In this document: piece after piece, positions 3,551-32,450 of the stretch
How positions within the stretch are numbered: position 1 is the stretch's first letter
Layout: each line of letters starts with the position of its first letter
UHGV virus genome: UHGV-0050993
Origin: a virus
Reading direction: 5' to 3' (one strand)
Length of the DNA stretch: 37,305 nt
Position numbers and translations under genes: made by a program
Notes under the pieces: model-generated
The model's input: only the letters and a program-made list of their open reading frames with translations
What the model was told of the DNA's origin: nothing
The model's database searches: none

Positions 3551-4486
3551 TCAGTAGTTATGTATTGAAGGAGGTAATTCTTTATTCTTAAGTCTCATCC
3601 ATGCGGAAAGATTCGTTGGTCCGTCTGGCTCATTAATATCAACATCTCGTGTGTGATTGATTAAAACGTCTCTCGCCATTCCGATAACATACGAGAATTC
3701 ATGACCGTAGTAGTAGCATCTGCCGGAATAGTTCGATTGAATTTGTTTTAATGCCGGATACAGTTCGCGGAATAATGCCTGTGAACGGTTGGCATAATCC
3801 CATAACCATACAAGGCTGTTTGCTTCTTTTGCAGAAAGCTCGTTGGTTTTCTTCTCTTGTTTGCCGATGAACTCACCGTCAAGTGGAACTCGAGCTGCAA
3901 GTGACAGTGCTTCGGCAAACTGCTCCTCACTGATTTCTTTGTATGAACACCCAAAATGGGATTTCAGTGACGACCACATGGTGATCATCGCCTTAGCCTG
4001 TTTTTCCTTTGACAGAGACTGACCGCGACTCATGACGAGTTGTTTAATGGCTTCCTGCTGTTCAGTGGTGATTTTACCCGGCAACGCCTTTTTAGCTTTG
4101 CGTGGGTTAACTACATGGCCTTTAGTCCAGTAGTCATGCAGCACGCTAAAGCATTCCTCCTGGTACTGAATCAGTTTATCGCGGATGTCAGCTCGAACTT
4201 TCTCAGGGTTGATGCTGAACAGCCATCCATTTAACTTCTTCAAAGGAAGGCAGAGTAGCTTACGAAGCTTCCCATCAGCGGCAACCATATTCATATGAAT
4301 ACAGTTGAACTTATCTAGTTGTTTCATAAGTTTTTGTTGCTGAGTACCCCAACTCATTCCAAGGTTTTCAACGATTGGCTTCATCGCAACGTATGCAACT
4401 CCGGCAGCCATGGCGGTGATAATTTGCTGACCGTTGAATGGTACGTAAGAGGTGTTCACTGCTTCTAAAATTGCTATACTATTCAT
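3551..4486 (-). CDS. ant: Antirepressor Ant (immI)
   Basis: ORF extends to 4552 but likely start is [10 protein letters not shown] at 4486 with GGAG upstream; position after arc and similarity to P22 Ant-type antirepressors. Confidence 0.8.
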
Positions 4487-4518
4487 GTTGGTTTTTCTCC
4501 ACGGATTTACTGACAACC

Positions 4519-4550
4519 GAAGCCCTGACTGTTCCCGCAGTTGGGGCTTC
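4519..4550 (+). ncRNA. Candidate sar-like antisense RNA terminator hairpin in arc-ant intergenic region
   Basis: Inverted repeat GAAGCCC...GGGCTTC in the 68-bp arc-ant spacer; in P22 a small antisense RNA (sar) ends here. Hairpin seen in sequence; RNA identity is inference. Confidence 0.3.
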
Positions 4551-4554
4551 AACT

Positions 4555-4716
4555 TTACGCGCCAATGCGCCCTTCCTTCTTAAAGCTTTCCATTACTCTC
4601 TGATAAATCTCAGAGTTAACAGACCGACCATTCTCTTCCGCCACCTTGCGTACCAAATCCAATACTTCTTTAGGCCACCGCAAATTGAACTGCGGCATCT
4701 TGCTCATTCCTTTCAT
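4555..4716 (-). CDS. arc: Arc repressor
   Basis: [53 protein letters not shown] is near-identical to P22 Arc (53 aa) as I recall it; ORF track shows longer upstream extension but canonical start is at 4716. Confidence 0.95.
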
Positions 4717-4732
4717 ATTCACCTCACAATAT

Positions 4733-4779
4733 AGGTCCACCGTGGACCTATTGAGAATATAGTAGAGTGCTTCTATCAT
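4733..4779. promoter_or_regulatory. immI operator region: Mnt operator palindrome and Arc operator (Pant/Pmnt)
   Basis: Perfect palindrome AGGTCCACCGTGGACCT (4733-4749, Mnt operator-like) and ATAGTAGAGTGCTTCTATCAT (4759-4779, Arc operator-like) between divergent arc and mnt. Confidence 0.85.
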
Positions 4780-4806
4780 GTCAATACACTAACTTGGAGT
4801 GATGGC

Positions 4807-5058
4807 ATGGCTAGAGATGATCCGCACTTTAACTTCCGTATGCCTATGGAAGTAAGGGAGAAATTAAAATTCAGGGCGGAGGCGAATGGGAGATCAATGA
4901 ACTCCGAGTTGTTACAAATCGTCCAAGATGCTCTATCAAAACCATCGCCTGTGACTGGATATCGTGACGATGCAGAACGACTCGCTGATGAGCAGTCAGA
5001 TCTTGTTAAGAAGATGGTGTTTGATACGCTGAAGGATTTGTACAAAAAACCCACCTGA
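4807..5058 (+). CDS. mnt: Mnt repressor
   Basis: MARDDPHFNFRMPMEVREKLKFRAEANGRSMNSELLQIVQDALSKPSPVTGYR... matches P22 Mnt almost residue for residue. Confidence 0.95.
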   Translation: MARDDPHFNFRMPMEVREKLKFRAEANGRSMNSELLQIVQDALSKPSPVTGYRDDAERLADEQSDLVKKMVFDTLKDLYKKPT

Positions 5059-29054: not shown

Positions 29055-29771
<717 letters not shown>

Positions 29772-29802: not shown

Positions 29803-30144
29803 ATGACACAATTTCAACTTGCATTAATCGCTAGAGAAGTTGATGGAGAAGTCATCCATCTTCGCACCAAAGACGGATACATCAATGCCACCGCGATGTG
29901 CAAGTCTGCGGGGAAGCTACTTGCTGACTATACACGACTAAAAACAACACAAGATTTTTTTGATGAATTATCACGCGATATGGGGATTCCCATATCGGAG
30001 TTAATTCAATCATTTAAAGGCGGAAGAGCAGAGAATCAAGGGACTTGGGTTCATCCAGACATCGCAATTAATTTAGCTCAGTGGCTATCTCCAAAATTTG
30101 CAGTGCAAGTATCGAGATGGGTGCGTGAGTGGATGTCAGGTTAA
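29803..30144 (+). CDS. KilA-N domain protein (N-terminal fragment of a longer disrupted gene?)
   Basis: 113 aa with KilA-N hallmarks (INATAMCKSAGK...GTWVHPDIAINLAQWLSPKFAVQVSRW); its TAA stop is in frame with the following ORF. Confidence 0.7.
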   Translation: MTQFQLALIAREVDGEVIHLRTKDGYINATAMCKSAGKLLADYTRLKTTQDFFDELSRDMGIPISELIQSFKGGRAENQGTWVHPDIAINLAQWLSPKFAVQVSRWVREWMSG

Positions 30145-30183
30145 AGAGCGCCTGCCGAACTCCCTATCCACCTTAAGCGGTAT

Positions 30184-30562
30184 ATGACAAACCGAGGCAG
30201 AGTTCCTCATACGCACTTTTCTATGCTTAATGAACTGACGTTTAACTTGGTTGCGCCACTTGAACAGGCCGGATATACGCTGCCAGAAAAAATGGTCCCT
30301 GATATTTCAGAGGGTAGGGTTTTCTCGCAATGGCTCCGTGACAACCGGGGGGTTGAGCCGAAGACATTCCCAACATATAACCATGAGTACCCAGATGGCC
30401 GGACATTCCCGGTACGTCTATACCCAAACGAATATTGCAGATTTCAAACAATACTTCAACGAAGTGTGGCTGCCTCAGTACGCTCCTAAATATTTTGCTG
30501 AACGAGACCAAAGGGCATTGACGTTGATTGAGAAAATCATGCTACCTGACCTTGATTCCTAA
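30184..30562 (+). pseudogene. Downstream part of KilA-N gene, interrupted by a +1 frameshift near 30400-30425
   Basis: ORF 30184..30489 is protein-like at its N-terminus and ORF 30251..30562 is protein-like at its C-terminus; the two overlap in adjacent frames, and 30184 is in frame with the KilA-N ORF across a single TAA. Confidence 0.5.
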
Positions 30563-30748
30563 ATGTTATTCCCGGCCACAGAGCCGGGTTTTCTTTGCCT
30601 CACGATCCCCCTCACCCAAGAACACATAACCAATTGTATCTATTTGAAAATAAATAGATACAACTCACTAAACATAGCAGTTCAGATCTCTCACCTACCA
30701 AACAATGCACCCCTGCAAAAAATAAATTCATATAAAAAACATACAGAT

Positions 30749-30811
30749 AACCATCTGCGGTGATGAATTATCTCTAGCGGTGTTGACATAAATACCACTG
30801 GCGGTGATACT
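30749..30811 (+). promoter_or_regulatory. Left operator OL3-OL2-OL1 and promoter pL
   Basis: AACCATCTGCGGTGATG (OL3), TATCTCTAGCGGTGTTG (OL2), TACCACTGGCGGTGATA (OL1); -35 TTGACA (30783-30788), -10 GATACT (30806-30811). Confidence 0.9.
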
Positions 30812-30879
30812 AAACACATCAGCAGGACGCACTACTCACCAGGGCGGTGAATATACAACGATTCAAATATGAATCTACG

Positions 30880-30894
30880 GCGCTGACAAAGCGC
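30880..30894 (+). promoter_or_regulatory. nutL boxB hairpin (P22 type)
   Basis: GCGCTGACAAAGCGC, as I recall the P22 boxB; lambda boxB (GCCCTGAAAAAGGGC) is not present. Confidence 0.7.
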
Positions 30895-31022
30895 AATAAC
30901 CAAAGTGAACTTTGGGGTGAATGCAGAAGCTAACCTTCTCGGCGGAGGCGCTTTGCAATGATTACGCTACCGGAGTTAGTCGCCCGGCTGTATTCACCGC
31001 CAAAGTTCACCAGGAGGTCTAT

Positions 31023-31406
31023 ATGACACGCAGAACTCAGTTCAAAGGCAATTCACGTTCTCGTCGTCGTGAGCGTTTAAAGGCAAAGGCATTAGCTAAC
31101 GGCGTACTGGCCCGCGAAGAAGCAATAAGTTCAGAAGTATTACACCGCCCTACTCTAAGCAGAGCGCAGATTCAGGCTAAAGGTACTCACGAAACGCCTG
31201 AGCGCATAGAAGACGCTAAGCCAATTAAGTTCATGGCACAGGACGTGATCTGGCAACAGAAAGAATACAGACGCAATCTGGAGAGAGCGGCCATTGTGTA
31301 CGCGAATGAGTTTGGACATAAGCAACCAGAAACTGGTGTATGTCTTCCAAATGTAGCTCTTTACGCAGCAGGATACCGGAAATCAAAACAACTGACGGCG
31401 AGATGA
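31023..31406 (+). CDS. N: N-like antiterminator (P22 gp24 type)
   Basis: Arg-rich motif near N-terminus (RRTQFKGNSRSRRRERLKAKA) and C-terminus ...LPNVALYAAGYRKSKQLTAR resembling P22 gp24; AGGAGG RBS before ATG 31023. ORF track start 30921 is an upstream extension. Confidence 0.75.
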   Translation: MTRRTQFKGNSRSRRRERLKAKALANGVLAREEAISSEVLHRPTLSRAQIQAKGTHETPERIEDAKPIKFMAQDVIWQQKEYRRNLERAAIVYANEFGHKQPETGVCLPNVALYAAGYRKSKQLTAR

Positions 31407-31467
31407 CTTGTGTTGGTCGCCAGAAAATGAAATTAGGCAGCAAACCACTTATTTGAGAGGAATTAAT

Positions 31468-32091
31468 ATGTCATCAATCCGCTTAACTACGAGAATGAAA
31501 GAGGAAATCGCTCGTAACGCTTTAATTAAGTCTGGGGTTTTCACTGAACTTGAAGAAGTAACAAAGTTAAAGAACCAGCTTGCACTTGACGCCAGAGTTA
31601 TTGCGTTTGGCGGTAAAAAGAAAACTGAGGAAGTGGATCGGTTATCATCCAAGTTAGCAGCTATAAGTGAAGAACTTGAGAAGATGGGATGTTCATTTTA
31701 CTCATGCGATGTTCGTTCTACTTCGATTTATCTGACTGTATCTGGAAGAAGGGTTGGCTGGCATTCATACGGAAAAGACGGCAACGGTGAAGATATATTG
31801 CTCCCCACCCCAGAAAAAGATAAATGCATGTTTGACGCAGAACACGAAATAACAAAAAGGTTTGATGAAATCTGCGCATTGCAACAAAAACTTGAAGCCA
31901 AGAAAAAGGATATCGAATCAAATGTATGGGCTGCTTTGAACTCAGTCACAACAGTTAAGCGACTTATTGAGGTTTGGCCTGAAAGCAAAGAATTGCTACC
32001 AAAAGAAGCAGATAAAGCAAGTACAGCACTTCCTGCTTTACGGGTAGAAGATTTGAATAAGATGATTGGACTTCCTTCCGAGGCCGCATAG
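31468..32091 (+). CDS. Hypothetical protein, AT-rich moron downstream of N
   Basis: 207-aa ORF (MSSIRLTTRMKEEIARNALIKSG...) with GAGAGGA RBS; visibly lower GC than neighbours; occupies the early-left slot where lambdoid phages carry ral/sieB-type genes. Confidence 0.6.
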   Translation: MSSIRLTTRMKEEIARNALIKSGVFTELEEVTKLKNQLALDARVIAFGGKKKTEEVDRLSSKLAAISEELEKMGCSFYSCDVRSTSIYLTVSGRRVGWHSYGKDGNGEDILLPTPEKDKCMFDAEHEITKRFDEICALQQKLEAKKKDIESNVWAALNSVTTVKRLIEVWPESKELLPKEADKASTALPALRVEDLNKMIGLPSEAA

Positions 32092-32315
32092 TCGGACTTT
32101 ATTTTTGGCATAAACAACAGAATAAACACTGCACTGTGTATTCATTCCAACGAGTGAATACACGGAGCAATGTCGCTCGTAACTAAACAGGAGCCGACTT
32201 GTTCTGATTATTGGAAATCTTCTTTGCCCTCCAGTGTGAGGGCCTTTTTATATGCATACCAATAGCGCTTCACTCGAGGCGTTTTCGTTATGCAATCAAA
32301 TATAAGGAGTTACCC

Positions 32316-32450
32316 ATGATGCACTTTCAGCTCGCGGGTAGCGGCGTCATGTCCGCTTTCTACCCGCACGAATCTGAATTATCACGCCGAGTTAAACAAT
32401 TAATCAGAGCAGCAAAGAAACAACTGGAGGCGTTATGCGCAATGAAATAG
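32316..32450 (+). CDS. cIII: CIII-like protein (FtsH inhibitor)
   Basis: MMHFQLAGSGVMSAFYPHESELSRRVKQLIRAAKKQLEAL parallels lambda CIII core (AIAGWPVAGCPSESLLERITRKLRDGWKRLIDIL); AGGAG RBS. ORF track start 32211 is an upstream extension. Confidence 0.7.
   Translation: MMHFQLAGSGVMSAFYPHESELSRRVKQLIRAAKKQLEALCAMK

Follow-up and report, generated by a model that had tools for sequence, protein, structure and literature searches.

The gene directly downstream of N in a P22-type phage with lambda immunity is a full-length Nmad5 family member carried as a mosaic cassette

What is encoded by the first gene after the antiterminator gene N in the early-left operon of the viral genome UHGV-0050993, and does its setting or its sequence point to a function? 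This stretch of 37,305 nucleotides (the window, meaning here the whole of the DNA analysed) looks like the complete genome of a P22-like temperate phage, with an integrase gene at its start and an early-left operon read on the + strand. A sequence-only reading, made without database searches, had singled out the gene after N as an AT-rich gene of 207 amino acids (aa) that it could not assign to any family and, judging from its position, as a candidate for a new exclusion, anti-defence or host-takeover function. Our analysis leaves little doubt that the gene product is a full-length, stand-alone member of the Nmad5 family (PF18757), encoded by a mosaic cassette that is complete in itself and lies between N and cIII in a P22-type phage with lambda immunity.

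This assignment is carried by the Pfam profile for Nmad5, on which the protein scores 240.3 bits where the curated cut-off is 27 (E 2.7e-71), with residues 4-203 covering all 206 profile positions. A second match is to PHROG 1965, a group annotated as of unknown function. NCBI lists the identical 207-aa protein, on 186 contigs, under the name 'Nmad5 family putative nucleotide modification protein', the same name is given by RefSeq/PGAP in E. coli chromosomes, and DNA matches were found in 233 phage records, among them mEp235, HK542, HK244, Kapi1, PhiR12 and many Stx1 and Stx2 phages. Of 5426 complete E. coli genomes, 1290 have matches to the gene DNA, and in 201 of these the match is in one piece with at least 80% coverage. 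All 71 close homologues carry PF18757, and an exhaustive profile search recovered 2304 Nmad5 representatives at 50% identity. Because of the profile match, the existing name, the DNA matches and this number of representatives, the view that the protein could be placed in no family was wrong, and neither the sequence nor the family is new. The window protein also has the usual form of the family, since the best 150 of the 2304 representatives are nearly all stand-alone proteins of about 200 aa (190-220) with one match spanning the whole protein, and gene length is preserved in homologues down to about 30% identity.

Nmad5 stands for 'nucleotide modification associated domain 5', and for the basis of this name we rely on the Pfam title and on later papers. 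The name probably overstates what is known of the family. No biochemical activity of any member is reported in the literature searched by family name, Pfam accession and related phrases, and in the literature on HK542 and mEp235 we found nothing on the gene, the OLD preprint using HK542 as a test phage only. A scan with NCBIfam profiles gave no match, nor did the defence-system profiles of PADLOC-DB v2 at E <= 0.1. In Pfam, at the same threshold, the only hits besides Nmad5 were sub-threshold coiled-coil noise, with no PF11058 (Ral) or superinfection-exclusion domain. The profile searches, which could have returned a characterised housekeeping protein, thus led only to the uncharacterised Nmad5 family.

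As to the gene itself, the sequence-only reading was right in describing an intact 207-aa reading frame with a good ribosome-binding site right after N in the pL operon. Its limits at 31408 and 32100 need correction, as they begin at a spurious extension and overrun the stop by 9 nt. The program-made list of open reading frames (ORFs) contains an intact + strand ORF at 31408-32091 with a TTG start (227 aa); this start was rejected, as the extension runs out of frame through a remnant of lambda-type N and is found in no homologue. Translation starts instead at the ATG at 31468, from which the frame codes for exactly 207 aa up to the stop codon at 32089-32091, and the ribosome-binding site in front of it (Table 1) is identical in HK542, mEp235 and E. 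coli A35. The gene has a G+C content of 40.9% and the window one of 47.3%, which puts the gene at the 3.5th percentile of stretches of 624 nt. That it is lower than in the neighbouring genes is only partly true: it holds against N (47.9%), cIII (47.4%) and the window as a whole, but kil (40.5%), gp157 (40.7%) and the phrog_3486 gene (41.7%) are equally low. A minus-strand ORF overlapping the gene (31728-32129, 133 aa; hypothetical HK542c101 in HK542) was not taken as a gene. It is probably none, because its stop-free length ranges from 63 to 187 aa across homologues and its conservation is inconsistent.

Selection and mosaicism were followed in a first set of 80 viral loci from IMG/VR, with copies of at least 93% identity, all of them near-identical E. 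coli copies. Of 69 full-length copies in these loci 67 are intact and the remaining two end three codons early. The pairwise ratio of nonsynonymous to synonymous substitution rates (dN/dS) is about 0.25, and the gene is real and under purifying selection. Similarity to the window starts at 31404 in 44 of the 80 loci and at 31433-31448 in 18 more, and it stops between 32121 and 32309 in 71 of them. These limits show a discrete exchangeable cassette from about 31404 to 32300. The suggestion that the gene lies in an N-proximal accessory slot is borne out by the same set, where the interval between N and cIII holds varying genes. The ORF directly 5' of the Nmad5 gene is a lambda-type N in 27 loci, a hybrid N in 20, Ral in 12, a Nun-like ORF in 7 (named by its resemblance to the Nun annotated in mEp235, not by a profile), a P22-type N in 5 and another ORF in 9. 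On the 3' side, most related loci continue with variants of cIII and kil, sometimes after an extra gene of about 320-390 aa without a Pfam match, and beyond these the recombination modules differ between phages. A tie of the cassette to one N allele or one type of recombinase was considered and dropped, as the cassette is found next to four or more different N or N-proximal partners, and the recombination module that goes with it may be of RecT, Erf, Bet or Rad52 type.

At its left end the cassette carries a trace of an earlier partner. The non-coding stretch between the P22-type N and the ribosome-binding site consists of the last 17 codons plus stop of a lambda-type N, joined at the TGA of the P22-type N, a precise recombination scar. 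The remnant also precedes the Nmad5 gene in mEp235 and E. coli A35, and in HK542 an intact lambda-type N ends 11 nt before the Nmad5 ATG. Because the remnant is shared and its counterpart is intact in HK542, a lambda-type N was most likely the first partner of the cassette, and recombination at the stop codon later exchanged the N allele. Two further arrangements were observed in the same slot. In loci such as L031 (the 12 of 80 mentioned above) Ral (PF11058, E 2.2e-48) lies 36 nt 5' of the Nmad5 gene, so that some prophages have N, ral and Nmad5 in series. The phage PhiR5_2 (PV340546) has the N allele of the window followed by an unrelated 237-aa gene (positions 4270-4983 of its locus) in place of Nmad5. 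This gene belongs to PHROG 2539, has weak similarity to Lar-like and endonuclease VII zinc fingers, and is another uncharacterised cassette in this hot spot.

The gene is not always kept whole. In the Stx2a phage Stx2_EH1965 (LC616032) a 1309-bp element of the IS3 family (positions 1192-2500 of its locus, with ORFs of 108 and 296 aa) interrupts the Nmad5 gene about 107 nt from its start. A 4-bp overlap marks the junction, and the split shows that the gene is dispensable. Many other Stx2a records have the Nmad5 match in two places per record, and a split by this insertion element is probably the reason why matches in E. coli genomes are mostly partial.

Conservation within the family is concentrated in a few motifs. 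In an alignment of 50 sequences A18, W170, E172, L176, P178 and N197 are invariant; in a larger one of 92 sequences this holds for A18, L176 and N197 only, with W170, E172 and P178 nearly so. Residues R5, I14, R43, G48, G49, G93, T162, L166, P171, L188, P189, L196 and G201 are nearly invariant in one or both alignments, and the window protein has these conserved residues. It likewise contains the family motifs, namely the N-terminal R-L-T, GG, T-x-K-x-L-x-x-x-W-P-E-x-x-E-L-x-P, L-P-A and L-N-x-x-I-G-L-P. Neither alignment contains a conserved cluster of His, Asp, Cys or Ser or a nucleotide-binding loop. The protein has an isoelectric point (pI) of 6.2 and no predicted membrane segment, and is modelled as a soluble helical fold. 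With 19 sequences the AlphaFold2 model reached a predicted local distance difference test score (pLDDT) of 85, and with 92 sequences a pLDDT of 91.4 and a predicted TM-score (pTM) of 0.81. From the N-terminus the model runs through a short strand, three long helices within residues 8-72, a small beta unit at 86-100 and a further long helix at 127-158. Two short helices (163-176) lie around W-P-E, and after a low-confidence linker (185-190) the chain closes with a short helix (194-200). A structure search with this model returned no solved fold, no enzyme-like match and no cofactor-binding fold. These features agree better with a role in binding or scaffolding than with an enzyme.

The gene neighbourhoods of the family were compared in a second scan of viral loci, led by a distant member (79 loci, 15 lineages at 70% identity), and in a scan of genome contigs with narrow search patterns (4 loci). 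The commonest neighbour is an S24/HTH repressor gene, found about 1.2 kb 5' of Nmad5 on the same strand in 11 of the 15 diverged temperate lineages; in these 11 the Nmad5 gene is at the head of the early-left operon. In prophages of Klebsiella, Providencia and Serratia the homologue (43-58% identical) is the first called gene 3' of the repressor. Genes for SSB, ERF, RecT, YqaJ and PD-(D/E)XK proteins lie downstream, cII is on the other strand, and there are no modification enzymes among the conserved neighbours. The early-left, nin-region and other ORFs tested in the window likewise include no methyltransferase, hydroxymethylase, kinase, aGPT-Pplase or thymidylate synthase. Among the ORFs tested, the window thus shows no neighbourhood of modification genes like the one in M6-like phages from which the name, as distinct from membership in the sequence family, is derived.

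In virulent phages the neighbours are genes for polymerase, primase, helicase, exonuclease, SSB and thymidylate synthase. The N4-like Ithacavirus has Nmad5 directly after ThyX, among polymerase, exonuclease, primase and SSB genes; in eiAU and Jilinvirus it is beside helicase and primase genes, in the Vibrio phage Athena1 just ahead of replication gene O, and in Dhillonvirus it is a lone opposite-strand gene among head genes. In the M6-like Yuavirus SN1 the gene lies between aGPT-Pplase1 and a pyrimidine hydroxymethylase (PMC9476957). Modification genes are thus nearby in one lineage only, and a gene of thymidylate-synthase type is adjacent in two. Judging from gene order, the common thread of these contexts is early expression together with closeness to genes of DNA replication and recombination.

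For the window, expression very early after infection is suggested by the elements around the gene. The promoter scan found pL, which is annotated as the same feature in the HK542 record, as the only promoter-like site for the gene. A terminator scan from pL to the end of the gene gave only a weak 5-bp stem inside N (31325-31337), and because there is no clear terminator in this interval we infer that Nmad5 is expressed with N on the earliest pL transcript. The first clear terminator-like hairpins after pL are those in front of cIII. Another hairpin, closer to the Nmad5 stop codon, has no U-tract; the RNA of 32092-32200 folds with -33.6 kcal/mol (z = -4.9), and the hairpin might serve in RNA processing or stability. 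In mEp235 the interval between Nun and the lambda-N remnant contains a terminator-like hairpin, AGCCCACTTCGGTGGGTTTTTTAT, at about 3925-3950 of the locus, 5' of Nmad5. That copy, unlike the one in the window, may need N antitermination.

Table 1 Features of the Nmad5 locus in the window
Feature	Coordinates	Strand	Evidence or remark
Lambda-like cI	29058-29771		Early-left region, ahead of the KilA-N gene
KilA-N/BstA-like gene, KilA-N piece	29803-30144
KilA-N/BstA-like gene, second piece	30184-30489		PADLOC BstA, E 4.3e-12
KilA-N/BstA-like gene, third piece	30251-30562
Terminator	30571-30588		Between the KilA-N gene and pL
pL promoter, TTGACA-17-GATACT, inside lambda-type oL operators	30783-30811	+	Promoter scan, sequence
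nutL boxB hairpin GCGCTGACAAAGCGC	30881-30895	+	Sequence
Antiterminator N, P22 type	31023-31406	+	Pfam N_peptide, E 2.8e-16; PHROG 271
Non-coding remnant of the 3' end of lambda-type N and left mosaic junction	31404-31456	+	Same sequence as the final codons of HK542 N (...VTCVGRQKMKLGSKPLI*)
Ribosome-binding site GAGAGGA, 6 nt before the Nmad5 ATG	31455-31461	+	Read from the sequence
Nmad5-family gene, 207 aa plus stop	31468-32091	+	ORF, Pfam, PHROG, NCBI name, dN/dS
Strong hairpin, 14-bp stem, about 40 nt after the Nmad5 stop	32130-32169	+	Inverted repeat
Two terminator-like hairpins 5' of cIII	32226-32283	+	Terminator scan, fold
cIII, next conserved gene 3' of Nmad5	32316-32450	+	Pfam cIII, E 7.8e-30

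Several features of the wider region deserve mention in their own right. After the Nmad5 gene the operon continues with cIII, kil, the phrog_3486 gene, RecT and a Gp157/Mu-Gam-like gene. The immunity region (30783-30895) is itself mosaic: oL/pL, like cI, are lambda-like, and N and the nutL boxB are of P22 type. An antisense RNA, sar, at 4487-4554 (Rfam RF00262, 95.6 bits) indicates a P22-like immI/ant region. Located 3' of cI, the KilA-N/BstA-like gene (29803-30562) is broken into three ORFs. Its counterpart in PhiR5_2 is intact, encodes 253 aa and is 99.4% identical, with 823 nt against 821 nt in the window. The broken state reflects either a sequencing error or a frameshift that turned a defence-type prophage gene into a pseudogene.

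The only experiments on any Nmad5 protein link the family to host defence, in this case to Tmn, and come from the single functional paper that we found, Yamashita et al. 2025 (PMC11846954). Dhillonvirus mutants that escape Tmn carry the nmad5 changes K296E (SM_S22) or K216E (SM_A8), and sensitivity to Tmn returns when the escape change is reverted. Deletion of nmad5 gives a viable phage that does not escape Tmn, and attempts to clone the gene failed, apparently on account of its toxicity (PMC11846954). In the deposited genome of SM_S22, K296 aligns with R165 of the window protein, within T-x-K-[KRQ]-L-I-x-x-W-P-E, and among the 50 aligned family members this column is always K, R or Q and never acidic. 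The K296E change and the conserved column at R165 therefore mark the C-terminal module as a functional surface, and escape from Tmn by K296E shows an interaction of the family, directly or indirectly, with host immunity.

Our tentative preference, which we regard as a serious possibility and not as a probability, is that Nmad5 is a non-catalytic binding protein made very early, acting on DNA metabolism or on the conflict with the host, and dispensable. A helical protein of about 23 kDa would be made from pL and probably share an early transcript with N, given that no clear intrinsic terminator lies between the two genes and that in the probable ancestral order only 11 nt separated the lambda-type N stop from the ATG. 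It would bind a partner conserved across Proteobacteria. The binding surface might be formed by the N-terminal R-L-T strand packed on the C-terminal module, T-x-K-[KRQ]-L-I-x-x-W-P-E-x-x-E-L-L-P plus L-P-A...L-N-x-x-I-G-L-P. The partner could be DNA itself or belong to the machinery of DNA replication, of recombination or of nucleotide metabolism, and Nmad5 would tune early phage DNA metabolism or host takeover. The protein is dispensable for growth, and host immunity can act on it, as a charge reversal at the position equivalent to R165 allows Dhillonvirus to escape Tmn. Some points weigh against this proposal. Nearness to replication and recombination genes may reflect early timing alone, and co-transcription with N ahead of any terminator is not universal, because a terminator-like hairpin precedes the gene in mEp235. 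E172, R5, R43 and N197 could form an unconventional active site, and a fold without a solved relative is compatible with catalysis. Both the name of the family and the thymidylate-synthase-like genes that adjoin it in two independent cases favour nucleotide metabolism, and the binding and its partner are themselves proposals.

A dedicated anti-defence or host-takeover protein, made early and blocking a nuclease or an immune system of the host by binding it directly (for example restriction, a RecBCD-linked system or a Tmn-like NTPase), is close to what the sequence-only reading had in mind. The accessory slot is also used by Ral and Nun, the gene is cassette-like, AT-rich and dispensable, and it is spread over unrelated phages as known anti-defence genes are. 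The apparent toxicity of the Dhillonvirus homologue in cloning and its missense change that escapes Tmn speak in the same direction, but the wild-type protein gives no protection against Tmn and its deletion leaves Tmn sensitivity unchanged (PMC11846954). The searches found no similarity in sequence or fold to known anti-defence proteins, and a pI of 6.2 marks it neither as a strongly acidic DNA mimic nor as a strongly basic protein. Moreover, the C-terminal motif is highly conserved in phages of hosts from Vibrio to Pseudomonas, which fits a target in the core machinery better than a fast-evolving immune target. No computation in this analysis shows an anti-defence activity, and we consider such a protein unlikely here, if far from implausible. 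Similarly doubtful is a broader version, in which Nmad5 proteins would form a large unrecognised class of early phage effectors whose invariant C-terminal module engages a core bacterial component of DNA metabolism or immunity, the lambdoid copy being a host-takeover or anti-defence factor. If this were true, the label 'nucleotide modification' would have been wrongly derived from gene context, and the lambdoid copy made on the earliest pL transcript, intact or disrupted by an insertion element in Stx phages, would present the interface that Tmn-type immunity reads or by which that immunity is blocked.

The function implied by the name, a genuine factor of DNA or nucleotide modification that is either an enzyme or an obligatory non-catalytic subunit and here would use host enzymes, appears improbable. 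It draws on the Yuavirus SN1 homologue between aGPT-Pplase1 and a pyrimidine hydroxymethylase (PMC9476957) and on the Ithacavirus homologue directly after ThyX, but most family contexts are without modification genes, including the ORFs tested in the window and the conserved neighbours in the 15 temperate lineages, and the protein has no catalytic-type motif, cofactor-binding fold or enzyme-like structural match. Superinfection exclusion or abortive infection exerted from the prophage, in the manner of sieB or rex, would suit a gene near the immunity region, where prophage morons often exclude other phages. Exclusion in a lysogen, as the sequence-only reading had envisaged it, is nevertheless unlikely with a repressible pL upstream as the only promoter found, no match in PADLOC and no predicted membrane segment. 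As the family is also common in strictly virulent phages (N4-like, Dhillonvirus, Yuavirus), in which lysogen exclusion would be senseless, we give this explanation hardly any weight. Just as remote is a role as a regulator of lysis and lysogeny alongside N, cIII and kil. Co-transcription with N and a position just 5' of cIII in most E. coli loci would agree with it, but homologues occur in virulent phages that have no lysogeny module, and the cassette recombines independently of N, cIII and immunity type.

A non-catalytic early binding protein is the reading that we tentatively carry forward, and the gene merits attention beyond this one phage. With its DNA in about a quarter of complete E. 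coli genomes, Nmad5 is among the commonest uncharacterised early genes of lambdoid and Stx-converting prophages, and the modification function implied by its name finds no support in the gene context of the window and related temperate phages or in the predicted fold. HK542 and mEp235, which have lambda immunity and are genetically tractable, offer a convenient system for the function of the family. Such a system bears on why one charge reversal in a conserved motif defeats Tmn in Dhillonvirus therapy phages.

Compared with known systems, the window gene resembles lambda Ral (PF11058) in its slot and its early expression from pL. Ral, the classical occupant of the N-proximal slot, differs in having 66 aa and an unrelated sequence, and Nmad5 is no simple replacement of Ral because both co-occur in 12 of 80 loci. 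The labels Nmad2 and Nmad5 presumably stem from the same original survey. Nmad2 (PF18753), a component of the NTTI defence system that was validated by experiment in the DefensePredictor study, shares with Nmad5 only the words 'nucleotide modification associated domain'. The 'NMAD' domains of that study were considered as evidence for Nmad5 and set aside, as they are Nmad2, a different Pfam family with no bearing on the window gene. The Ithacavirus proteins (Shigella phage B2 gp19, FSL SP-076), in contrast, align with the window protein over the full length at 30% identity (209 aa), although these phages are virulent podoviruses and have the gene in their replication module, with ThyX on one side and exonuclease/primase genes on the other. 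SN1_019 of the M6-like Yuavirus belongs to the same family (E 3.4e-33) and is 32% identical over the C-terminal 88 residues, but it lies inside a thymidine-hypermodification cassette (aGPT-Pplase1, kinase, radical SAM, PLP enzyme, hydroxymethylase), none of which was found in the window. The Dhillonvirus proteins of SM_S22 (CDS0006, PP627283) and SM_A8 are members of PF18757 as well, with E 1.2e-55 over profile positions 1-206 for SM_S22, and the data on Tmn escape and toxicity refer to the Dhillonvirus protein alone (PMC11846954). SM_S22 is a virulent siphovirus, unlike the phage of the window, and its protein is rich in insertions in the N-terminal half and has an annotated length 80 residues greater. 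The C-terminal halves of the two proteins are 31% identical and share T-x-K-[KR]-L-I-x-x-W-P-E ... L-N-x-x-x-G-x-P, and the two genes are alike in being dispensable accessory genes.

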